Assembly (NCBI GenBank): GCA_964016885.1
Contig: OZ024742.1
Coordinates: 26,660,001-26,724,000, forward strand
Direction: 5' to 3'
Length of the DNA: 64,000 nucleotides
Origin: Eledone cirrhosa
Taxonomy: Eukaryota
Made by a program: the position numbers and the translations under genes. Numbering within the stretch: the stretch's first letter is position 1; each line of letters starts with the position of its first letter. This document shows positions 3,061 through 53,269 of this stretch, piece by piece. The notes beneath the pieces are model-generated. The model ran no database searches. It was not told where the DNA came from and saw nothing but the letters and a program-made list of their open reading frames with translations.

Positions 3061-3065
<5 letters not shown>
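2626..3065 (+). mobile_element. Solo 3' UTR/pseudo-LTR of a Penelope-like element between (TA)n tracts
   Basis: 2745-3065 is the reverse complement of 31895-32225, the 3' UTR of the PLE fragment at 31893-32947. It has a ~60 bp direct duplication at its 5' side (2626/2700) and carries an HHR. Confidence 0.75.
2910..3026 (+). ncRNA. Type I hammerhead ribozyme with large branched stem II insertion
   Basis: ttatt-CTGATGA-a atgacagt..(~70 nt)..actgttat a-GAAA-cacgtg-TC-aataa; palindromic stem III and GTC cleavage triplet. Confidence 0.75.
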
Positions 3066-3096
<31 letters not shown>

Positions 3097-3098
<2 letters not shown>

Positions 3099-3280
3099 GG
3101 AGTTGTGGTAAGGAACCAGATGGACCATAACGCACCAGAGTACTCAATACTTAGGGTAGTAGAGTGGGTAATAGTACAATGTATGACTCCGACGGCAGAG
3201 CTCAAGCCGTTTCGACGGCTATTTCCAGAAATAGCCGTCGAAACAGCTTGAGCTCTGTCGTTGGGGTCATACATTTTCCT
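3097..3280 (-). mobile_element. Short fold-back element family F1, copy 1 (3' half of an HHR)
   Basis: Homologous to 7920-8118 and 16020-16217. Hairpin ~3177-3275 centred on gacggctatt..aatagccgtc, followed by GAAA cggc-ttgagctct-gccg TC; (TA)n on both sides. Confidence 0.75.
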
Positions 3281-4014
3281 ATATATATATATATGCATAT
3301 AAATATCTATTCGTTTTTGAGAAAATCATTGGTTTTATATACATATATATATATGTGTTTGTGTGTGTGTGTGTGTGTGCGTCCGTGTGTCTGTGTGCAT
3401 ATCCATTCATATTTTTGTGAATGATTGCTTATATATATATATATAATTTTAGTATATATCACTAACATGGTGATGGCATATATAACCTTGAACACACATC
3501 TATACCTCAATCACGTCAGTTCGAAAAGATGCACTTTTTGCATATTTTTTTATCAAACTTCAGGCCTAACCACCAAACGTTGACAAGTTATCGCAATAGT
3601 CTATAAGAAAAAAAAACGCAAAATCACATAAGTAGCTCCTCATTTCAATTTTTTTTTTCGTGATTTTGTTCACTCAAGAGATCTTTTACGATGATATATA
3701 GTATGAACTGTACATGTCACCATATTTTGGTAGATCTGAAATGAGCAGTCAATAAACACACACATACTGTCAGAAAAAGAGGTACACATGCATAAATTAA
3801 CATGCGGACACGCTGATGTGTCCGTATATATGCAAACCAATCCACATCCATATATTTCCAAGCAGTTCTTTATATATGTATTTGTAGCTCTATCTAATAC
3901 ATAGGGAGTGTTCAATATACTAAAGTAAAGTAAATATTATAGTATAGCATTGTGAATTACATGAGGAAATAACTTGCGAATGAAACAGTTGTAGCCCTGT
4001 AGAAGTCATTTCTT

Positions 4015-4050
<36 letters not shown>

Positions 4051-4096
4051 AAAAAAGATGAAATCGAATATGCAACTGGAGTCTTTTTTTTAAATA

Positions 4097-4211
4097 TTTA
4101 TTTGGTTCCTTTACCGGTTTCGCAGTTCTTTTGCTTTTCAAAAGTAGAACTGAGATGGAGGTTTTGTGGTTTTTCTCGCATCGATGCGAGAAAAACCACA
4201 AACCCTCCATC
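4097..4211 (-). mobile_element. Half-HHR plus adjacent palindrome
   Basis: Minus strand reads cagttct..agaactg-c-GAAA-ccgg-TA-aaggaacc-AAATAAA with no CTGANGA. A near-perfect palindrome at 4154-4211 is centred on gcatcgatgc. Confidence 0.55.
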
Positions 4212-4399
4212 ACACACACACACACATATATATATATAGATATATTATTATTATTTATTACTGCAACAAGTGGATCGTTTATGTTGCCTACATTATTTCG
4301 CTGCTGTTTTAAATATTTATCTACTAATATTCTTTCCTAACCTTTAGTTTCGCTTGTAGTCGTACTATGAATAATTCATTCATAGTTAATTATTTTTAT

Positions 4400-6400
4400 A
4401 TTTTATATTTAGTTTGTATATAAGAGCTCATTAGTACAATAATTTATCTTCTTATTAACATGTCTTTCTAACACTCATCGCACATAACTTCCTCTACGAA
4501 ATATGGATACTTTCTGCAGCAAGGTTGCGACATTTTATCATCTACATTTTCATCAAGCTTAAGGTATTTCATATATAAAATATGGTTATATATTTCCTGT
4601 AGTATTACAACCTGGGTCCTGTCTGGATTAATATGTTGTAGAAAAAGGGCTGCAGAAAGGGATTCTCCTTGAAATATTACTCTTCTATGAAAAAAAAAAA
4701 AATAGACCGTATAACGTTTCATAAATTCCACTTTTGTTTTATCTTACACATTTCTTGTTATTTGCTTATGAAATATTTCATGGAAATTATTATTATTGAT
4801 GCTACTTTAAACATAGTCATATCTTTCCAGAACCCATGTGGGAAGAAAATATCAACATGCTTCAAGTAATCTGCCATTTGCAGTTCTTTCCTTTCTTTAT
4901 TTTCAATGTTTAGTTAGAACATTCTTGATCAGCAATTGACTTCTGTCAAATTTACATTTCATCCTTTTGAGCTCGATATGAAATACACCACCCACCACTG
5001 GAGCTAGCTTACTTCCCAGTCTTCCTCCCCCCCTCTCTCTCTATCTCTCTCTTCCCTCACTCTCTCTCTTCTCACTCTCTCTCTCCTCTCTCACTCTTTC
5101 TATCTCTCACACACATACTCTTTCTCTTTACCCTTGGTTTGAAGAAAACTGTGTTCAAACATGAGATGGATTATTTCCGCGTGACATATATATCCAAGTT
5201 ACGGCATATATCACAAAGGCGCCACTACGACTCAATCAGAAGGTATGAACTAAATAGAGAAGGAAAATAATAATGTTTACAGTTTTATCAGCTTATTCAG
5301 CAGCACGTCTGTTGAGAACTTGAGTTGCTTTATCCCGGATATATCTTTATTCTGTGTTGTTATGTCTTTGAACGTCACAATAAAGGTAGATTAATGTGTA
5401 TAGAGTTTTCTGTTTCCTGTAGTCCAGAAGAATAAGATGTTCTCTTCAATGAGTGAGTTATGTGTTTTTCCTGCTCAGTCAGTATCGTAACATATAACTC
5501 TGCTGGCGATTTACCTATCTTTCTTAAATGTTATAACTAGAAATGTTTGATCTCACCATGTTATGTCACCTTCCATTTATTTTCTTCTATTCTTTTGAGG
5601 CGTTTAGGCTCTACATTAAACCTCTCACACTTGTTAAGTAGTTGCATTGCCTGTTCCTGGTTAACACCACACTCAGTATGTCCCCCTTCTACTGATCTTA
5701 CAGTTAGTGTTGCATTAATATTTCCTATATGTTTTAGTTCTTGATGAAATTATTTTGGAGTGGTATCGTACATTTGCAGAGGAGCGGCGTCGTTCTTTGC
5801 AGAAGAACTACTGTCTTATCACATTAATGGATTCTTTCTTCGTTAACGAACACATCCTGTTTCAGGTGTACTTGGTGTGGAGTATTGTATTTTCTTATGT
5901 TTATATTTCTGTGGTATTTGGTCATCATTCTGCTTTAGATATATCAATTCAAACTTGGCTTCATTAACGTCTTCTAGAATATGTCATTATTTTTAAATGT
6001 ATTTCTCTGTATTCTATGTTAATTTCTTTTATTGTGTACCAGAATTCTGATATTTCTGTCTATATAAATCTGAGGGAGTATAAATATACCTTTAGATCCA
6101 TTTTACACATTCATGTTTTCCGCCTAACCTGACAACATTAATGTTTATCTCTGGTTTAGATAAGCTGCGATGACTAGGTATCCATTTTGTTTTAATTATT
6201 GCTATTTTATCTTTTTGTACTGTCGTTGCTTTATATTATAATCCTGCCATTTCAAAATATTTCTGACTATTTAGGCTGTCATTCCTAATTTGCCGTTTTA
6301 GAATTGTATTCTAAAGCTTTTCTCATTTTCTCCTTTATATGTTTTGATCTGGTTAAAGGTTAGGCGTTTAACTCGGTAGGAGTTATGTGGTTTAATTTTC
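4400..6400 (-). mobile_element. Highly degenerate R4/Dong-like non-LTR retrotransposon RT region
   Basis: ORF 4468-4731 RRVIFQGESLSAALF..NHILYMKYLKL resembles RRGIFQGDSLSPLLF..NHLLYMDDLKL. Upstream QLLIKN..LQMADYLKHVD..PH resembles QLLIN..WIDYKKAFDSVPH. The extent beyond ~4940 is less certain. Confidence 0.6.
4935..5015 (+). mobile_element. SINE family A fragment
   Basis: tttcatccttttgagctcgat..aaatac resembles ctttcatcct..gtcgataaaataaagtacc. Confidence 0.4.
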
Positions 6401-6429
6401 TTGTCGTTTCATATATAAATACACACATA

Positions 6430-6622
6430 TACGAGAGGATGTCGAAAGTTCCTGACTTGATCAATGCACAGAGACCTTTTTACAGTGCTTAGAAAATCTG
6501 AAGTACCGCTTCAATAAGTGTGTGAATTTGAGAGGGGATTATGTTGAATAAAATGATCATGAACTGATCCTGCTGTGTTTTCTTTTACCAACAAGTCAGT
6601 AAGTTTTCAGCACCTCCTCTTA
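6430..6622 (+). mobile_element. Mariner-derived MITE / internally deleted mariner
   Basis: TA-flanked imperfect TIRs (tacgagaggatgtcgaaagttcctgac / gtcagtaagttttcagcacctcctctta). The interior encodes ..KYRFNKCVNLRGDYVE*, the conserved mariner transposase C-terminus. Confidence 0.75.
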
Positions 6623-7919
6623 TATAGTAGAAACGTATAGGTATTTATTATAAACACTCTTTCCTCATACTGATGTTATCGATTTTGCAACGATGAGAGC
6701 TAAGCCAGAAACTGATGAGAAACAATGTATATTCACGTGGCTGAAAATAAAATACGAATATGTCTCCAGAAACTAAGTACAAAAGGAAAATATATTTATA
6801 GTGTGATAACAAAGTTATTGATACAATAACAGAATAATATCAAAATTAATAAGACATTTATTGTGTGATACTAAATTTTAATAATCTAATTATAGTATAA
6901 TACCAACATTAATAATACATTATTTTTGCAATTCTGAAATACGATATAATCATTCGATAGAGGTTCATTTTATTTTATCTTTTCTCTAAAACTTGGAAAT
7001 ACTCCAACCAATATTGAAGTCGAAACTGAGGGTAAATATCGAAGTGTTTTATCGAAACGTAGGAAATATGATTCAGATAAAGAACAGAACATATGAACTA
7101 AACAAAAGAATGAGAAATGATTGTAATATCTATTTTAATGACACGAGAAAATAAAATACTTTTTGAAAATATTAATAGATAAATATAATATTTAGCATGG
7201 TATAACAAACATAACAAACCCACCTTATCTTCAGTTTTATTTCACGTGTGGTGGAATAACAGAATAACACGTAGAATCCCTGTAATATACTTTGAAATCT
7301 GTGTAATTTTGGTCAGAAAATGGCGAAGAGAAAACAAATTTTATTATTACAGAATTCTCTGAGAATTGAAGTTCTTTCCTATTGGGAAACTGCATTAGTT
7401 TATTGGGAACTTATATTACTTTGTAAATAAATAAGTGTAACCTTTTATCAATTGATATATCATAAATATGTTTCTATATTCATGATTTGTTAGCTGACAG
7501 TCGAAGTATGTGTATATACGTACATCTGTGCAGTTCAACTCAGGCTCATAGGAAGGTCAGACAAGAACCCGCCCGCCATATCGACAGATACAATGAGGCC
7601 ATCCTATCAAGGTCAATGGGGAGAACATAAAACCGTTCGAGAAACTGTATGAAACGATCCACCTTTCCAGAGCGTTCTTTGGGGACAGTACCACTCACAG
7701 AAATACAAGGAAGACCCCTGTTGACTTCAGGTATGCCATGTCAGAGACTACACTACCACAGTAGTGTATACCTACATATCATTATCCAAAACCACATGCA
7801 CTCCCACCTACATCTGTATTCTGAGCTCCCCATCTTTGAAATGTTCGTAACTGTGCATAATCAATAAGGACATTAATGTGGAATCTCGTTTTGTTCTGAA
7901 TATATATATATATATATAT

Positions 7920-8118
7920 AACGAAGGAAGTGTGGTAGGGAACCAGGTGGACAATAACGTACCAGGGTACTCGAGACTTTGGGTAGTAGAATGAGTAATA
8001 GGAAAATAGTCATGACCCTGACGGCAGAGCTCAAAACGTTTGCCGTTTCGAGAGCTATTTCTGGAATAGCTGTCGAAACGGCTTGAGCTCTGCCGTCGAG
8101 GTTCTGATTATTTTCCTA
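7920..8118 (-). mobile_element. Fold-back family F1, copy 2
   Basis: Homologous to 3097-3280; hairpin ~8000-8118; (TA)n flanks. Confidence 0.75.
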
Positions 8119-8247
8119 TATACATACATATATATATATATATATATATGATTATATGTATGTATATATATATATATATGATTATATGTATGTATATATA
8201 TATATATATATATATATGATTGTATGTATGTATATATATATATATAT

Positions 8248-8851
8248 GTCAGGTCACCAGTTGGTGCTACTGGTAACATGTATCCCAGTACAACCTGTCT
8301 CATGGTCGGGTCGTTGGCAACTAAACTGGCAACCCCACCAAGGTTTCTTGGTGAGGAGGGTGACTTTGGACATCCTGCAGGACTAAAAACAAAACCTGTC
8401 AAAGGGCAAAGGACCTCTTAAGAGTCAATGGCCATCCAAAATCACCGGGAGTGATGACCCCTTAGCCTTTGTCAAGGCAGAATTCTAGGAGAAGGAAAAC
8501 TCTGATATAACACCTGCAACCCTGATGGTATCCAATGATGTTGACTTGTTCTTCTTTTTGGTAAATATCACCTTGGTTAAGAGAGTAGGACTGGTTTTGT
8601 GCAGTGCCTTTGCTCACTATAAAAGCTTCACGGCACAGGCATTGCTTTATATCTGGAGATCTCTCTGCCCTTGTCGTCACATGGTACCATGGGCCCAGCA
8701 CTATGTGTCAATAATTGTCACAAGTGTAGTGTTTGTACCAGAGTTTTCAAGTTGCTGGCTAGACTAAAAAGTCACTCGTTCAGCGCATCGGTAGGGGTTC
8801 TCCTACATGGATATAAAGTAATGGCCGTACTCGAAAACGAGTTGGCAGCCA

Positions 8852-8853
<2 letters not shown>
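8248..8853 (+). mobile_element. Non-autonomous RTE-derived short element, copy 1
   Basis: Similar copies at 28400 and 29893. The 3' part retains a C2H2-like HKCSVCTRVFK(S)LAGLKSH typical of RTE ORF ends and ends at ..gagttggcagccacc(at)n; inserted in (TA)n. Confidence 0.75.
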
Positions 8854-8888
<35 letters not shown>

Positions 8889-8898
8889 TGTATGTATG

Positions 8899-8940
<42 letters not shown>

Positions 8941-9344
8941 TAGGAACGAAGTCAAGTTTGCACCATAAATAAACTTTATTTCATATGACAATTTTTTCGA
9001 TATCGATCATAATAATTGAGGCCCGACTCTGCATCGACATCTCACTAGATATGCGAGATCGAGTTCGTGGTCACGGCACATATTTGTGGAGAATTAAAGC
9101 CTGTAGCTAAAAATGTATACAAAGCCTGTGTTTGGTAGCCATGAAAAAATTCAAAATGTTAATTTGTGTATCAACGCAAATGACTATAATAAAATAATCG
9201 ATAACTATAAAAATAATCGATCACAATAAACAATAGTTTCGATTCCTCGTGGTGACTCCATCCACACTTTACGTCTCGGATTTTATCTATCTGAAACTTT
9301 ATGCGTGTTATCTGATGAGGCCTGATACGTATAAAAGAGCGAAT

Positions 9345-9505
9345 TCACTGGAGAATTACAGCGTTAGATAAAATATATTGCGGCATTTATTCCGGATCCT
9401 TGTTTTCCAAGTTCAAATCCTGCCGCAATCAATGTTGCCGTCAATCATTTCAGTGTCTGTAAATGGGCTGAAACCTCCGCCTTTAGATTGACGTAATCGA
9501 TAGAG
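9345..9505 (+). mobile_element. Diverged SINE family A
   Basis: B-box-like aagttcaaatcctgccg, followed by a diverged body. Confidence 0.5.
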
Positions 9506-10707
9506 TATCGAACAACATGCCCTGCGCTATTTATTCTGGTTATTTGTGTTTTGATTTCTAACATAACAATAGATTAGTTGGGTCTCATATTTAATTCGTC
9601 GCTATGGCTAACTCCACCACGTGGACCTTAGGTAACTTTAACGGAGTGTTCTCTGTTGAAAGCACTCGACGTCCAATTTGATGCCACGTGTCCCATTTCT
9701 CGCGACCTTTCTTAGTAGCCCTAGAATGCTCAATATGTACTAACCTTCAGCCTGACACAACTATAGATGAATAGGTTAAAAGCAAAATAAACTTCCTTGT
9801 CCGTGTAATTTAATGCAGTGTTTTGAATAAGAAAAAGAGAAAGTGTGAGAGGGACAGAGACAGACAGACTTAGACAGAGATACATATAATGTAAACAAAA
9901 GGCTTTGGTGATGTTGGTGAGCAAAAACAAAAGGCAAAATATTACAAAATCAAATCATAAGGGTATCATTTATGGCGGAAACAAAATATTTTATTCAAAA
10001 ATATCAACAATTAAACCTTTGATCTTTTTCCAAATTCTCATCTCTTGAAACTGTGTTATGTATGCGCTAATTTTATTTGTTATTTTCTTAAGAGGTGTCT
10101 AAGACACTTAATACTAATCTATCAGGAGAATAGAAGCGTCTTCTCGGTAATGGTAGCATTAATAATGGATGTATTGATATTAGCTGTCATATAAACTATA
10201 TTGATAATAATCATGCTGCTACTATAATTGCTAATGTTTGTCAAACTAAATGATGGTCTGCGACTGTCTAGATAATAAAGAACCACAACAATTATTAAAT
10301 TATATTGTTTAGTTACGTGCCACACGATTCCGTGTTCAGACTGTAACGGAATTGACTTTGTCATTCATTGCTCCGGGGTCATTCAAATGATTACCGGAAT
10401 ATCGAAGTCTACAGTCGACAGAAATATCGAAGAAAATGTCAATTCGTAATGGTTGTTGTTTTGCCTCAGGTCAACCCGAGTCAAGCAGACGTTTCGTAAA
10501 CGACTTTCATGTCGGGGTCGTGTATATCGGACGAGAACCGAGGCTTTAAGCGTGACTATAATTTTAAATATCAGAGACTATAGTATCGAAAGTTTTGTTC
10601 CAGTAACTATGCTTTCAGTTACGTTGGCTGCTATTTCTAGCAGAAAACATCTACACTGTGGGACAAAAGTGGAAAACTTCTCGTCCACTTATGAAGATCT
10701 AAACTCC

Positions 10708-10838
10708 ACATCGACCCCGTAAGGATGAAAGGCAAAGTTAACCTCGGCGGGATATGAAATCAGATCATAAAGGGGCGTAACTCTATGCTTCAAAGCATGG
10801 CGTCCGACTCTCTACCGATACTGCCAATCCACTGCCCT
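10708..10838 (-). mobile_element. SINE family A (partial)
   Basis: atcgaccccgtaaggatgaaaggcaaagttaacctcggcggg..ctaccgatactgccaatccactgccct. Confidence 0.8.
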
Positions 10839-12822
10839 TATATATATAATAACAATAATGAAAACTATTGTGTACAGTGATCAGATGCACTACAACTCAT
10901 TGAAGTTGCATGTATAGTACACAGAATAATGTACACATTTCAGATAAATGTGTGCGTATGACTAGAGGGAGTATATTATGTGTAGTATTGGTGAATTTAG
11001 GGAAGAATGGAAGTTTTGAAGGTTGCAGTGTGCCAACAATTAACAACTGATGCAAGTAGCTTGATCCATACTTCAGCAACTCTCAGCGTGAAAAAAAGTT
11101 CCCGAAAGTCATGGGAGCTGTGTTGTTTTCTGATTTTGTAAGCATGGCAACGAGTATTGAACGCATGACATTCAAAATGGTGCTCAAGTTTGTTGTTGGA
11201 TAATAATAATATTTCGGGTGTATATAAATCTTTTTATTCATGTATGTATATATCTATGTATGTTAATGGAAGTAAAAAACACCCACATTCCACCACCATA
11301 AATTATATTGAAGGGTCATTCCGCCTCGTAGTCCCGGCTGGTAGGATGTGTCATGCAACATCAGTCAAAAGTAGGATTACGTTGCGAACTGATCACGTAT
11401 TAGACGCATTCCAATTAATAAAAATGAAGAAGTAAAAGGACGCAAAATTCTTGATTGATTCGTAATGTGTCCTCATGATACACACCATGTAGGTTACATC
11501 AAGCCTGATGAAGGTCATCTCTCTCCTGATTGAACACAGCCAATTTCTTGCAGAAATAAAGTGGGGACCAATCTCGGTTCGGAATTCAGTGCACGATAAA
11601 CGCAAACAAATGCTGAAGCCTTTTTATACCGACATCCTAACAACTCTGACAATTGGCTGCCTTCATTTCGTTTACTACTAATTAGCATGTAGCATTTATC
11701 ATGTTATTTGCGGATTTGTTTTTTTGTTTTTTTCATTTTTAAAAAGTGTAAATCAATATTGTAAGTTTCATAAAGCTAACAACTCCTGCAGTGCGTAAGA
11801 TGAAAATAGTTGCCGGCAATAATGTATATACTTTCGGTGATAGATTGACACACCGTTATGTTTTACTGTGTGTTTATTGAATATGTAATAATTGTGTTTC
11901 TGATCTTATAAAGTGATGGTGGTGTTGAAGTGAAGTAACAAAGAGGAATTACTGAACGAATAGTGATGAATATATGCATAAAGAAGTCTGGTGGAGGTGA
12001 TGGACGAAGCAAAGGAGATATGTTGGCGGTATTGACGAGTAGGAGCGAGGAAAAATAACTGCGGGTGTGCTTTTGTGAGAAGGTCTGAAATCTGGAGTAG
12101 GTGATGGAAGAATAGCAGGGTTATTAAATGAAGGAACGAAATGGAATGACAGCAAGATTAGTGGTGAAAGAGAATAAAAAAATGTGTAGAAGAAAGACAA
12201 TGGGGGAAGAAGCTAATATGAGGGAGGGGTTTGGTAAAAAGTTTCAGTACCAGTGGCAATAGAGTAGAGTTGAACAGAAGAAAAAACAAATATGAAAGGA
12301 AGGGAAAACGAAGAAAGCAGATAAAAGATATGATTTATTTTTTTAACTATTTTCATATCTAATCGACTTAAACATCCCCTGGACCTATGATGAACATGTT
12401 GTTTAATGTTTATATGTAACTAAACAATTTCCATAATAATTTTGTTTAAGAAACGTACTCCAAAAAACCAGCTTAAACATACGAACATTCCTTGTATTAC
12501 TAAATCCCTCCAATATCATGATTATTTTTTTAATTTTTGAAAACTAGAGAGTATTTCATGAGAAATACGGTAACAAAAAAGTATAGATAAATGACAGGTA
12601 AGAAACGGGAAAGGTAAGAGTGAGTTTGTATGAGTGTGGGGTGAAGAGCTACGAAAGAAAAATGATTAGAATGTAACCTCGTGTCCCAAATAATAGGGAG
12701 GGGAAATACTATCTTCCAATATTTGTTGTCTTAATATAGAGATAACTAGTATTGTTACTTAATTCCATAAAGTGCAGTTGGAGATATTTTATGAGGAGAC
12801 ACTGACATATGTTGGTGATATT

Positions 12823-12869
<47 letters not shown>

Positions 12870-13213
12870 AGGAAAATGCGAAGTTAAAGATATTAGGTTC
12901 CATTATTAATTTAGTCTTGTATAACGAATATAAATATATATATATATAAACGGAAACAATGAAATGAAATTTCATTTCTCACTCTTAGTACGGTTGTTAC
13001 TTAAATATAAGTATGTATACGTACATACATATATGTATACAGACGTACAGTAGTATGTATATATACATACATGCACACATATATATATATGTAAGTATGG
13101 ATTTACCGAACATTAATTATAATGTTCGGTGTGTTTGTAAACAAATATCCCGAATTAAGTCGTACAGTGTTTAGCAACCACCGTTGCTCTTTTGTTCAAC
13201 ACTGACAAAGGAA

Positions 13214-13254
13214 CGCTGTTCTAGTTTCAAGCGTATTAGCTATCGTCAGCAACG
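13214..13254 (-). ncRNA. Type I hammerhead ribozyme (cleavage site mutated)
   Basis: Reverse complement: cgttg-CTGACGA-tagc taatac gctt-GAAA-ctag-AA-cagcg. Confidence 0.7.
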
Positions 13255-13420
13255 CATATTTTCCTGCCAGATGATTGAACGTCTGAAAGTATATACTTTC
13301 CTTATGCATATTAACCTCTGAGCAGCCTAATTTGCATATCGAGTGAGTTAATCGGCCGGGTGCACCGAAAACGATAATAAATGTTCGGTAAATCCATACG
13401 TACATATATATGTGTCCCTG

Positions 13421-13456
<36 letters not shown>

Positions 13457-13684
13457 TACTACTGTACGTCTGTATACATATATGTATGTACGTATACATA
13501 CTGATATTTAAGTAACAGCTGTACTAAGAGTGGGAAATGAAATTTCGTTTCATTTTTTCCGTTTATCGTTTTCGGTGAGCCCGGCCGATTAACTCACTCG
13601 ATATGCAAATTAGGCTGCTCAGCCGTTAACATGCATAAGGAAAGTATATACTTTCAGACGTTCAATCATCTGGCAGGAAGGTAT

Positions 13685-13727
13685 ACGCTGCTGACGATAG
13701 CTAATAAGCTTGAAACTGGTACAGCGT
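13685..13727 (+). ncRNA. Minimal type I hammerhead ribozyme
   Basis: acgctg-CTGACGA-tagc taataa gctt-GAAA-ctgg-TA-cagcgt. Confidence 0.85.
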
Positions 13728-13934
13728 TCCTTTGTCAGTGTTGAACAAAAGAGCAACGATGGTTGCTAAACACTCTACGGCTTAATTCGGGTTGTTTGTT
13801 TACAAACACACCGAGCATTATAATAAATGTTCGGTTAATCCATACGTAAATATATATATGTGTGCATGCATATATATATATATATATACATACTACTGTA
13901 CGTCTGTATACATATATGTATGTACGTATACATA

Positions 13935-13977
<43 letters not shown>

Positions 13978-13979
<2 letters not shown>

Positions 13980-14860
13980 TATGAAGAGAGAAGAAACATT
14001 TAGATATAATTAGTAATAAAATGTATCATACCTAAACTGCAGTTTAGGTATGATACATTTTATTACTAATTATATCTAAATGTTTCTTCTCTCTTCATAA
14101 TGTATTTTTAACTCTGATACTGGTTCAGTCTAGTTCAACTGAATTGGTCTGTCCCAGTCATTCATTGAGCAACATCGGTGAAGTCGGCACCCTTAACTCA
14201 CAGTTGGGTGCGGATGCATTCATGTATATATGTGTGTGTCCGCATGTATCTGTGTGTTTCTAAATATATTAATAACTGCCTCTGGTCGAGCAATCTTTGA
14301 AGTGTGGGGACAACTGGAAAGCTTCCATTACTCATACTTTTCGCCTTCTTCACTACCTCTTCTACGGCCTCGATATGAATACCCCCTCCGCCTCCGTGGT
14401 ATTTTCTTCGTGGTTATAAGAGGCTTAGCTCTGTTTCTCGACCGTTATATCGCGTGACTATCTCCCCCTCCGCCTTTTGGGATTCTTTCTCACGTCGTGT
14501 AGACGCGTTCTTGAGACTAGTAAAATGAGGTATCCTCTTGATAAGTCGGCAGACCTCGCAAGGACTCTATATCTTTGATATATTGTTTTTGTTTATGCCA
14601 CGAAACTACGTAGTCGAGGAATTTAGGAGCAGTTTAGGTATGATACATTTTATTACTAATTATATCTAAATGTTTCTTCTCTCTTCATAATGTATTTTTA
14701 ACTCTGATACTGGTTCAGTCTAGTTCAACTGAATTGGTCTGTCCCAGTCATTCATTGAGCAACATCGGTGAAGTCGGCACCCTTAACTCACAGTTGGGTG
14801 CGGATGCATTCATGTATATATGTGTGTGTCCGCATGTATCTGTGTGTTTCTAAATATATT
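13978..14860. repeat. Perfect palindrome plus ~230 bp direct repeats (pLTR-like architecture)
   Basis: 13978-14101 is a perfect palindrome centred on ctgcag; 14039-14270 is repeated at 14629-14860 around a ~360 bp unique core; (TA)n flanks. Confidence 0.7.
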
Positions 14861-15783
14861 ATATATATATATATATATATGGAGAGAGAGAGAGGGAGAG
14901 AGAGATATTTAAGTGAAAACCCAAAGATTATACTTCGGAGCGTTTCATGAATTTCTACGTTCCTTTCAACTTTAGAGCACATCAAACACTGTGTGATTAA
15001 ATAGTGATTTGCAGATTAATCAATTAATTTAACAGTAAAGCAGTTGCAATCACTTAACATTAAAGTATCCTCATGAAATCGATATAAATTTGGAGAATAC
15101 ATGTCCCGAACAAAAACATATCAATTCATGTTCAATAACATATACTAAAAAGTCAGGGCAGGCTTTCAGAGTGCTGAAAGAGACCGTTATACATTTAAGC
15201 ATCATGCAATTAGTTCAAAGCAGTAATCAGTTTAATGCAATGCAATAAAACCTCCTGGTTGTAGTATAGTTTAAATAAATAAGCACAAATATATTAACAT
15301 ACTACATTCTATTATTTGTGGTCTAAACTATTTTTAAGAACATAAACATCCAAGAGCGATATTCGGCAGAGTTCAACGTTCAAAATATGTTTATATTAAA
15401 AACAATGGATTATGAATAGATATCCAAATTCAAAATATCGGTTGTTCGATTAGAAAGCGGAACCAAATATGTTTTCAAACTATATGTTCGATAGTGACCT
15501 ACACTAAAAGTGTACATTTGGATATATACGGGTTATTATAAAAGAAATCTACGAATGTAAGTTTAAAAACTCTCGAGTAGACCTGTGTAACCTTATAGAG
15601 AAAACTTATGTAGACCTACTTTTGATAGTAATATTATATGTCTCAGATGTCTAATACAAAGAGACGTATGATTCTTATTAGGTTATAGGCAGAAGAGGGA
15701 GATAATTTAAGGTCCGTGGCTTAATTTTAAACTCCAACTGAGGTGTATATTACTTAGGGTCACCTTTATAATAATAAAAGGAT

Positions 15784-15847
<64 letters not shown>

Positions 15848-15983
15848 ACACTGGAAGGTAATATATTCGTAGTGGTAGAGCATTCAGTCTATGGGTCGAG
15901 ATGGGTAGAAGTGATAAAACAACAGTAAGAACAACAGTATGAACGCGCGTGCGCAGAAACGGTCACTTCACCCAAGCGATATA

Positions 15984-16019
<36 letters not shown>

Positions 16020-16021
<2 letters not shown>

Positions 16022-16217
16022 ACGAAGGATGTGTGGTCAGGAACCAGATGGACCATAACGCACCACAACACTCAATACTTAGGGCAGTAGAGCTGGTAAT
16101 AGGAAAAATGTTAGACCCCGACGGCAGAGCTCAAGCCGTTTCGACGGCTATTTCTGGAGCCCAGATATAGCCGTCGAAACGGCTTGAGCTCTGCCGTCGG
16201 GGTCTAACATATTCCCA
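16020..16217 (-). mobile_element. Fold-back family F1, copy 3
   Basis: Homologous to 3097-3280; near-perfect hairpin 16100-16217; (TA)n flanks. Confidence 0.8.
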
Positions 16218-16287
16218 TAAATATATATATATATATAAAATAAAGATAAATAAAAAGTCAAATGATTAAAATTTAGCTTCGTTTATT

Positions 16288-16342
16288 ACTGCTATATATA
16301 TTTCAGTGACAGCCATCTTTGGCTGTGACCTCCTCAGGCAGT
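16288..16342 (-). ncRNA. Type I hammerhead ribozyme (family of 47453/49626)
   Basis: Reverse complement: actgc-CTGAGGA-ggtcacagcca aaga tggctgtcact-GAAA-tatata-TA-gcagt-AATAAA. Confidence 0.85.
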
Positions 16343-16458
16343 TTGAATTAGTATGGTATAGACAAGTACATATGTTGTTGAGGTGTATAATATTGTCAAT
16401 ACTCTGATATGCCCAGTTCCTGGTTGGGTTGTTATTTCACTGAGGAACTGGAATCATA

Positions 16459-47452: not shown

Positions 47453-47508
47453 ACTGCCTGATGAGGTCATAGCCATTCAATGGCTATCATCGAAATATAT
47501 ATAGCAGT
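47453..47508 (+). ncRNA. Type I hammerhead ribozyme
   Basis: actgc-CTGATGA-ggtcatagcca ttcaa tggctatcatc-GAAA-tatata-TA-gcagt-aAATAAA; lies in a short element (~47350-47555) abutting the (TA)n array. Confidence 0.88.
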
Positions 47509-48495
47509 AAATAAAGAATTATGAGTTCATGCAATTGACTTATGTTTGGTCACTATATATAATGATACAATCTCATTTGCACATGTATCCTGATTTTTCT
47601 TTACTTTTAATTGCTAGAAATAATAATGTTTTCTTTTCTGTTACGTTGCTATACAAACTGTTATGTTAGTGATAGTTGATAAATTGCTATATATATTGTT
47701 GTTGTTACTCTAGTAGTTCATATTATTAGTTCTGTTGTTGTAGTAGTTGCAACTATTCCTGTGGTTGGCTTCTTAATGTCGTATGACATGTGGACACCAT
47801 TTCGAGAAGCAAGTCGTAACCGCCGAGTCACACCTAGGCCTCATTTACTGCATTTTGGATTGAATTCAGGGCGCTGGGAAAACGTCTAATGGGTCAATCC
47901 CGAACAACATGCAGCACTGTCTGGACAGAGTCTTAATACTCACATGCTGGGCTGTCTATCGTTTCCCTTCGATGGAGATAATGTGCTGTGGTTGTGCTTC
48001 ATAATACTGGTAGAGTTTTTATCGTTGCTTCATTTTCATACATTTCTTATCTTTCTCGTTGTGTCGAGGGTCTTAATAAATCCTATTTTTTATTCCTACC
48101 GTTCCTATTTTTATGCGTATTGCTGTAGCGGTTTCACTTCTATATGCTGTTGTTGTTATTGTTGCTGTGCGTAATTCTACATTTACAGATTATTTTCTAG
48201 ATAGAAAGTCAACAATTACTTCAATTATTTAATATTTTGTCTATGATGAAGATCAAAATATAAAATCAAAATAGGTTATTGCTAAAATCATCCAGGTTAG
48301 ATATAAAAACATCTCAGGTTAGATATAATTCTGCTTCTTTATACCTTCTTACAGGCACACACAAACACACATATATATCTATATTTAAATATCAATTTAT
48401 ATGAAACAGTCTTACTATGTGAGGTATTGTGCTTTCTATATTCTAAACATTTAGGCACACAACGCACACACACACACATGCACACCCATATTTAC

Positions 48496-49625: not shown

Positions 49626-49681
49626 ACAGCCTGATGAGGTCATAGCCATTAAATGGCTATCATCGAAATATATATAGCAGT
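49626..49681 (+). ncRNA. Type I hammerhead ribozyme
   Basis: acagc-CTGATGA-ggtcatagccatt a aatggctatcatc-GAAA-tatata-TA-gcagt; lies in 49563-49727, a copy of 47390-47555 flanked by (TA)n. Confidence 0.85.
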
Positions 49682-49769
49682 AAATAAAGGATTATGAGTT
49701 AATGTAATTGACTTATGTTTCGTCACTATATATATATATATATATGTTTGAATGTATGCTCACACACAC

Positions 49770-53072: not shown

Positions 53073-53111
<39 letters not shown>

Positions 53112-53117
<6 letters not shown>

Positions 53118-53269
53118 ATACTTTGGGAGGGTCATGTTGCCAATAAGAAACACACGTACCAACTGGTGCGTGTGTTTCTTATTGGCAACATGACCCCCCC
53201 AAAGTATAACAATATCGGTTTCAACACACGATTTCAGATAAAGAATCTTGCTAAACAAATTCAGAAACG

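Follow-up and report, generated by a model that had tools for sequence, protein, structure and literature searches.

We analysed a window of 64,000 nucleotides (nt) of the Eledone cirrhosa genome (contig OZ024742.1), in which a repeat family named F1 is present as three hairpins, spanning 3096-3282, 7919-8119 and 16020-16217, each of them built from the 3' ends of a Penelope-like element (PLE) that bears a hammerhead ribozyme. Here, we follow this family from the window to its parent element and consider how such small palindromic copies may be formed. The element is numbered from the G of the ribozyme GAAA (position 0), with the predicted cleavage between +22 and +23, a tail-less 3' end at +43, and a tail end at +122; the tail-bearing arm of a hairpin is called the T arm, and the tail-less one the P arm.

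In copy 1, the T arm (3096..3225, minus strand) abuts a (TA)n target at 3065..3095 and carries the 3' end of the PLE from about -12 through stem III, the cleavage site, and the 3' strand of stem I to +122. Its P arm (3224..3282, plus strand), which starts at about -14/-16 and finishes in (TA)n at the +43 end, overlaps the T arm by 2 nt. The T arm of copy 2 (7919..8065, minus strand) ends at about -15/-16 and has a private 7-nt insertion at ~8036-8042, and its P arm (8065..8119, plus strand) extends from about -9/-10 to the +43 end. Copy 3 consists of a T arm (16020..16158, minus strand) ending at about -14 to -16 and a P arm (16158..16217, plus strand) that goes from -18, the putative transcription start, to +43, preceded by a possibly cap-derived G at 16157. 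All three copies are flanked on both sides by (TA)n or decayed (TA)n runs, and the ~80 nt at the left of each hairpin are the PLE tail on the minus strand and are thus part of the element. The right arm of each copy comprises GAAA, stem III, TC, and GGGGT (GAGGT in copy 2); none of the three has a complete hammerhead core, the 5' half being absent. Folded as single-stranded DNA, the hairpins reach z scores of -15.9, -13.9, and -20.4, with none of 200 shuffles folding as well, and a BLAST search within the window returned these three copies and no others. The initial annotation had reported the three hairpins, the 3' half of a hammerhead in their arms with CTGANGA missing, and copy-specific variants common to both arms of a copy with loops differing between copies, all of which holds for every copy, the variable stretch being located in the bulge of stem I.

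F1 copies are the known head-to-head structure of PLEs in its smallest form, with (TA)n enclosing two 3' ends of a single element, of which one has a tail of ~80 nt. Previous work on PLEs has already described inverted pseudo-long terminal repeats (pLTRs) placed head to head with the tail on one side only, palindromes at the junctions, and insertion into (TA)n (PMC8557442, PMC3846280). Two other identities were set aside. A miniature inverted-repeat transposable element (MITE) does not agree with the asymmetric ends, with a tail on one side, the variable centre, and a parent encoding a reverse transcriptase (RT). Non-LTR retrozymes, in turn, are arrays of units in tandem, arranged head to tail and all carrying a full type I hammerhead (bioRxiv 10.64898/2026.07.22.740005), whereas F1 units are head to head and lack the core. 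The family is abundant: exact matches in the 3.0-Gb genome number 65,985 for an 18-mer of the arm and 42,156 for a 23-mer of the tail, and a pattern search found at least 17,848 tail-left hairpins with up to 80 nt separating the anchors, a count that two-tailed hairpins enter twice. These figures are lower bounds, because exact matching was demanded, and reversed-pattern controls gave no matches. Junctions were studied in two samples. The first comprises 97 position-ordered hairpins from contig C1, preselected for both anchors (100 before three two-tailed ones, listed twice, were counted once), and the second, anchored on the tail alone, comprises 97 distinct copies from 100 listed; 30 loci with a score bias toward copy 3 were excluded from the junction counts.

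The parent of these copies had been expected to carry a canonical CTGANGA core, which proved not to be the case: the genome pattern search for it gave 24 matches, none with a closed stem II and none forming a closed hammerhead. Some of the loci from this search had longer arms with un-inverted upstream sequence, which became the pattern for a parent with a U3-A8 core (TTGANAA), with 1,179 matches in the genome. The other main subfamily was covered by a second pattern, which matched no more than 9 times because stem II is mismatched there at the pattern spot; parents of this subfamily turned up among the retrieved loci. The core of 71 distinct parents is TTGANAAG (U3-A8) in 59, CTGANAAG (C3-A8) in 11, and TTGAAGAG (U3-G8, in L215) in one. 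The C3-A8 core (CTGAGAAG), predicted to be mismatched, has nonetheless been amplified in subfamilies represented by L076, L077, L099, L100, L101, L235, L238, and L239. Minimum free energy folds of two parents contain the type I three-way junction (z = -2.36 and -0.04), and across 30 aligned parents 91.8% of the cells are paired, with G10.1-C11.1 in all 30. In its core, helix order, G10.1-C11.1 pair, and cleavage triplet, the parent is a type I hammerhead as judged from these models, its core departing from CUGANGA by U3-A8. Rfam gave no hammerhead match for the parent at E <= 10. In L205, L208, and L263, stem III is flanked by two 6-nt direct repeats, and the segment between them is missing from one arm. 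A U3-A8 variant had already been described for PLE hammerheads by Cervera and De la Pena in 2014 (PMC4209133).

The locus L303 displays the layout of the parent element: an inverted tailed pLTR, a direct pLTR, a tail running into the open reading frame (ORF), and then a tail-less pLTR. Direct and inverted pLTRs with a tail at one end, as expected of endonuclease-bearing (EN+) PLEs, are found in L303 and in L085-L093. The L303 ORF is an open frame of 786 aa in which, by eye, the motifs YRDD, SMG..DSAE, and FLDV and a C-terminal IY..YIG region can be read; on these motifs, it would encode an RT and a GIY-YIG endonuclease in a single frame, as in EN+ PLEs. Pfam returned no match for the ORFs of F1 parents at E <= 1. 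The layout, the ORF motifs, and the ribozyme together support the initial attribution of F1 to a PLE with a hammerhead. Within PLEs, the motif set would place the parent in the Hydra clade: RWR (RWK-like), DKT, a CxCX5C linker, no CCHH, and CxxC and CxH near the end of the endonuclease, together with insertion in (TA)n. An assignment to the Neptune clade was dropped, as the ORF motifs match Hydra. Tandem arrays of the parent have a period of ~3.53-3.54 kb, compared with the generally <3 kb of Hydra elements, for which a canonical hammerhead is also the general case, and the consensus files accompanying PMC8557442 may already include this family. Two further features of the parent can be mentioned. 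At L303:6930-6996, the tail has a GT donor-like site and ends right before a pyrimidine tract and TAG, where a short upstream ORF stops; this segment is possibly a retained intron of ~67 nt in the 5' untranslated region, as in other PLEs, and no spliced joint for it was present among the joints listed from public-run contigs. Moreover, the ends of three long arms (L085:4216-4292, L089:3873, and L100:5356) cluster in a stretch of ~80 nt in the RT region, where a second stop site may exist.

The comparison of hairpin and parent bears on the origin of the palindrome. According to the initial annotation, the apex of the hairpin was the ribozyme's own stem II, on which the cDNA would snap back and prime itself, and the apex does lie just past the 3' strand of stem II in most copies. 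The 5' strand of the parental stem II and the ~30 nt of its loop and distal helix, however, lie upstream of the point where F1 turns. This contradicts a fold-back on stem II, because a cDNA folding there would keep the 5' strand and the loop, and the parsed hairpins do not; their left half repeats the 3' strand as its reverse complement, and the perfect palindromic 'stem II' of the hairpin is the inversion itself. Further evidence against this model is that either arm may be the longer one (the T arm in 42 of the 97 hairpins and the P arm in 34, with 21 overlapping), that solos lacking any inversion have the same stop, and that tail-less solos exist, so that we consider it hardly credible. What does stand is the claim that the inversion is made anew at each insertion. 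Over +11 to ~+40, the two arms of one copy differ by 1.28 nt on average and those of different copies by 4.31, and left arms do not group with left arms, T-T and P-P distances both being 4.29; since arms group by copy and not by side, each hairpin appears to have been generated in its own insertion. The alternative, a pre-formed MITE-like or short interspersed nuclear element (SINE)-like hairpin master spreading whole while gene conversion keeps its arms alike, would account for the fixed outer ends and for the loops that recur. We regard it as very improbable in view of the dozens of distinct junctions inside each subfamily, the continuum of copies from 60-nt solos to kb-long inverted pairs, and the outer ends (+43 and +122), which are the parent's own 3' ends. 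The junctions themselves are diverse, with 43 overlaps of 1-5 nt, 26 blunt joints, and 28 insertions, including A runs and short arm repeats.

The arms share a common stop. Among the 97 hairpins, 88 T arms and 79 P arms end at -12..-22; in the tail-anchored copies, 49 of the 97 T-arm 5' ends lie at -28..-12, 9 are long, and 39 are shorter, down to +82 inside the tail. Solos on (TA)n start mostly at -17/-18. The same boundary is visible in the summed contig depth of public run X1 on L303, a rough measure that cannot resolve start sites; this depth falls from ~3.0 million (6851-6877) to 0.17 million (6797-6823), with 6-9 thousand on the ORF, that is, a step of ~18-fold across -18 and of several hundred-fold over the ORF; public run X3, from the same sample, gives the same step. 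A splice acceptor at the apex was discarded, there being no common upstream exon beyond the stop, and jumps of poly(T) onto poly(A) tails were dropped too, as the runs are As on the cDNA. The predicted cleavage site, at +22..+24, is where six of the 39 short T arms start, with 1.2 expected (p = 0.002, for an interval chosen from the model), and +17..+19 holds another 5, which weakens this signal; there is thus a weak hint that cleaved RNAs may also be copied.

The sequence around this stop resembles a promoter. An initiator is defined by the consensus YYANWYY or TCAGTY, and an initiator-like motif that matches it, with its A at -18, is found as TTAGTCC in 52 of the 71 parents and as TCAGT(C/A)C in 10. 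A TATA-like run lies 29-31 nt upstream of this motif in 68 of the 71 parents and is part of the 5' strand of stem II. In addition, many of the solo copies that begin at this motif have an extra base, absent from the parent. One non-T base separates (TA)n from A(-18) at 242 sites; among the first 100 of them, G accounts for 80, A for 11, and C for 9 (75 of 95 with G after merging tandem and paired sites), and the parent has T or C there. Plain (TA)n junctions, including -17 starts, number 498, which gives an estimate, taken with different anchors, of at least ~0.39 G per plain junction at -18. As a control, the first 100 of 565 'TATATG' junctions were classified by eye: G precedes -18 in 27 (with 4 further GG), -13 in 6, and -17 in 4, and precedes -15, -14, and -12 once each, with 29 plain -17 starts and 12 plain -12 starts. 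The extra G is concentrated at -18 and -13, the two pyrimidine-A steps of that stretch. In LINE-1 work, an untemplated 5' G beside a pyrimidine-purine initiator step, the same arrangement as in F1, has been read as a copied mRNA cap (PMC9341517), and the non-parental G at -18 is the signature that would be expected from copying such a cap. At ORF-linked loci, where the tail continues into the ORF, 8 of 30 arms start at -4..-22. Five of the 30 (L341 and L342 being one locus) have template jumps, in which the cDNA, having ended at ~-14..-21, resumes on an RNA end that lies 60-820 nt inside the ORF-side sequence. In L383 and L386, the upstream (TA)n includes brief, abortive repetitions of the extra G followed by the first element bases, a pattern suggestive of two re-priming events at the end of the cDNA.

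We propose that an F1 copy is probably a minimal PLE insertion, formed by two separately primed cDNAs that run off at a likely capped RNA start inside loop II of the hammerhead and are then joined head to head by end joining. The ribozyme would overlap a promoter for RNA polymerase II, made up of the TATA-like run, which belongs to the 5' strand of stem II, and the initiator-like motif at -18. An RNA started at this motif would bear, at its 5' end, no more of the ribozyme than the 3' half and would not cleave in cis at that place. By analogy with Anolis Poseidon, +43 and +122 would each serve as an internal priming site, one for each of two nicks on opposite (TA)n strands; priming at the pLTR-ORF junction nearest the cap would yield cDNAs of only ~60 and ~140 nt. 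These cDNAs would usually derive from one RNA or one source locus and terminate at -17/-18, where many would acquire a base templated by the cap, a run of As, or a re-primed repeat, or would switch to the end of another RNA. Their 3' ends would then meet, the varied loops would result from trimming and end joining of the microhomology type, and the capture of only one cDNA would leave a solo. The initial annotation had attributed the loss of the core to the fold-back: short copies do lack its 5' half, and the cause is most likely that the template RNA starts downstream of the core. We also lean, if only slightly, towards a broader view of the parent, in which the hammerhead would itself house the promoter, with the initiator in loop II and a TATA-like box in stem II, so that the start would split the ribozyme and spare the RNA 5' end from self-cleavage; a dimeric RT would prime twice near the cap, the junctions would record double target priming with cap run-off and not self-priming, and cap-to-3'-end template jumps would build the tandems.

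Several observations weigh against two primed cDNAs and a capped start, and part of them favour snap-back self-priming at the RNA 5' end, in which the tail-primed cDNA would fold at -17/-18 and copy to +43, with later deletions at the apex giving the asymmetry. The lengths of the two arms show a weak correlation (Spearman 0.22, p = 0.03, with maximal ends, and 0.33, p = 0.001, with minimal ones), and perfect or near-perfect palindromic junctions, which snap-back predicts, exist (L157, L171, L112). Arms are nearly always of one subfamily and share private variants; pairs from two subfamilies are rare (~1 of the 97 by eye, with L011 and L045 as further cases from other samples), and the use of two RNAs is thus not shown to be the rule. 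Self-priming has also been proposed for PLE junction palindromes (PMC3846280). We nevertheless judge this alternative unlikely. In 18 of the 97 tail-anchored copies, the P arm reaches >10 nt further upstream than the T arm, 15 of these 18 P arms stopping at -12..-25; neither arm contains the other and, therefore, a fold-back needs a later one-sided deletion, as it does in at least 34 of the 97 hairpins. Snap-back also leaves unexplained the tail-less copies among the G-junction copies retrieved (14 of 20, the other 6 being tailed), the G-junction copy L374, whose hairpin has (TA)n between its arms, the A runs at the end of either arm (L113, L159, L150), and long pairs such as L085, whose T arm lacks sequence found in the other arm.

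Other points concern the stop itself, which coincides with the base of the predicted distal helix of stem II (7 bp, 84% of cells paired). Two primed cDNAs could thus have been halted at -12..-22 by this helix or by a bound protein on a long RNA, without any transcription start at that position, and the spread of arm ends across ~10 nt would suit such an RT block. This possibility is, in our judgement, quite improbable, since the extra G is concentrated at the two pyrimidine-A steps, the initiator-like and TATA-like motifs have the spacing of a promoter, template jumps and A runs begin at the stop, and the stronger stems I, III, and proximal II are passed by the RT without a comparable stop. 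The same tally against our reading includes about a quarter of the arms, which seem to reach -19..-22 (23 and 21 of the 97) and therefore require start heterogeneity or added As that mimic the template. As (TA)n often decays to TATG, some extra Gs derive from the target (~0.14 per plain junction at -17 and ~0.08 at -12). The start site and its cap are deduced from DNA, and the Penelope promoter of D. virilis, described as internal and TATA-less (PMC2377424), is unlike the putative F1 layout. Finally, the ribozyme fold is not established by covariation: the 30 parents contain 2 pairs with double changes, a level reached by 282 of 500 shuffles.

The window contains other features besides F1. A second, unrelated hammerhead-like family, with a CTGANGA core and a minimal TATA stem III, lies at 16235-16455 (minus strand), directly adjoining F1 copy 3, and at 47453-47520 and 49626-49690 (both plus strand). 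Elsewhere in the genome, at L031, L038, and L042 (~1330-1700), an F1 tail arm stands head to head with an arm of this second family, in L031 without (TA)n between them; cDNAs of two different elements may have been joined at one site in these cases. CTGATGA...GAAA motifs resembling other PLE hammerhead families occur at 2915 (plus), 32052 (minus), 17651 (minus), 53508 (plus), and 11505 (plus), none of the five being recovered with a strict helix I filter. Between 28000 and 48000, there is a very long AT-rich microsatellite tract, with GC down to 0.065-0.074 between 38 and 46 kb. A near-perfect hairpin of ~105 nt at 53110-53215, unrelated to F1, matches a microRNA model below threshold, and the 150 matches listed of the 748 from an Rfam search of the whole window are microRNA models below the gathering score, mostly on microsatellites.

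The origin of the tandem and inverted ends of PLEs is described as unresolved in the literature (PMC8557442, PMC3846280, PMC11167929). In the F1 family, one short, fully readable design is repeated in tens of thousands of independent junctions, which discriminate between self-priming and double priming and place a candidate capped start to the base, and an RNA of ~300 nt with a (TA)n target represents a system open to direct in vitro test. A promoter overlapping the ribozyme core, if true, would explain how a self-cleaving RNA is carried and uncleaved templates are used, and head-to-head joining of run-off products, if true, would help to explain how PLEs form inverted ends.

In L1 twin priming, an inversion is also made by a second priming event, but each of the two cDNAs copies a different part of the RNA and no palindrome results; the F1 cDNAs, in contrast, would both copy the same 60 nt and point outward. 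A search of the open-licence literature, with most subscription papers and Repbase outside its scope, retrieved no paper that, from its title and the beginning of its abstract, reports junction statistics in favour of double priming or a capped start located within a PLE hammerhead. Closest to the parent are the Hydra-clade PLEs with a C-terminal EN described by Craig et al. in 2021 (PMC8557442), which share with it a single ORF, the RWK-like, DKT, linker, and EN motifs, the lack of CCHH, a hammerhead, and (TA)n; tandem and inverted insertions with the tail at one end are reported there for PLEs in general. They differ in their tail of 30-40 nt, against ~80 nt in F1, and in their size of <3 kb, against the ~3.5-kb tandem period. 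F1 also stands apart through its U3-A8 core, its putative promoter within the ribozyme, and its tens of thousands of minimal copies. The PLE hammerheads of PMC4209133 resemble the F1 parent in being type I ribozymes in the pLTR with U3-A8 covariation, G10.1-C11.1, a long helix II, and a palindromic loop III, and, as in F1, their motifs are often close together on opposite strands. F1, unlike them, has a helix III of 5 pairs and a helix II that is long and bulged, and most of its copies retain only the 3' half.

As for the mechanism, self-priming on an antisense template was hypothesised in 2013 for the junction palindromes of the Penelope elements of Adineta vaga (PMC3846280), which have the same head-to-head inverted structure, palindromic junctions, and optional tail; the F1 junctions fit two sense-templated cDNAs better than that scheme. 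Frangieh et al. showed in 2024 that the Anolis Poseidon_Ac protein cuts and extends both strands of an AT-rich target in vitro, with two internal RT starts bounding the tail and uncleaved RNA as template (PMC11167929). Poseidon_Ac belongs to another clade, its later steps were left to be validated, and the portions of that report consulted map no start inside the hammerhead. Its two starts defining a tail, extension of both strands, AT-rich target, and uncleaved template would nevertheless correspond to the scheme proposed here for F1.

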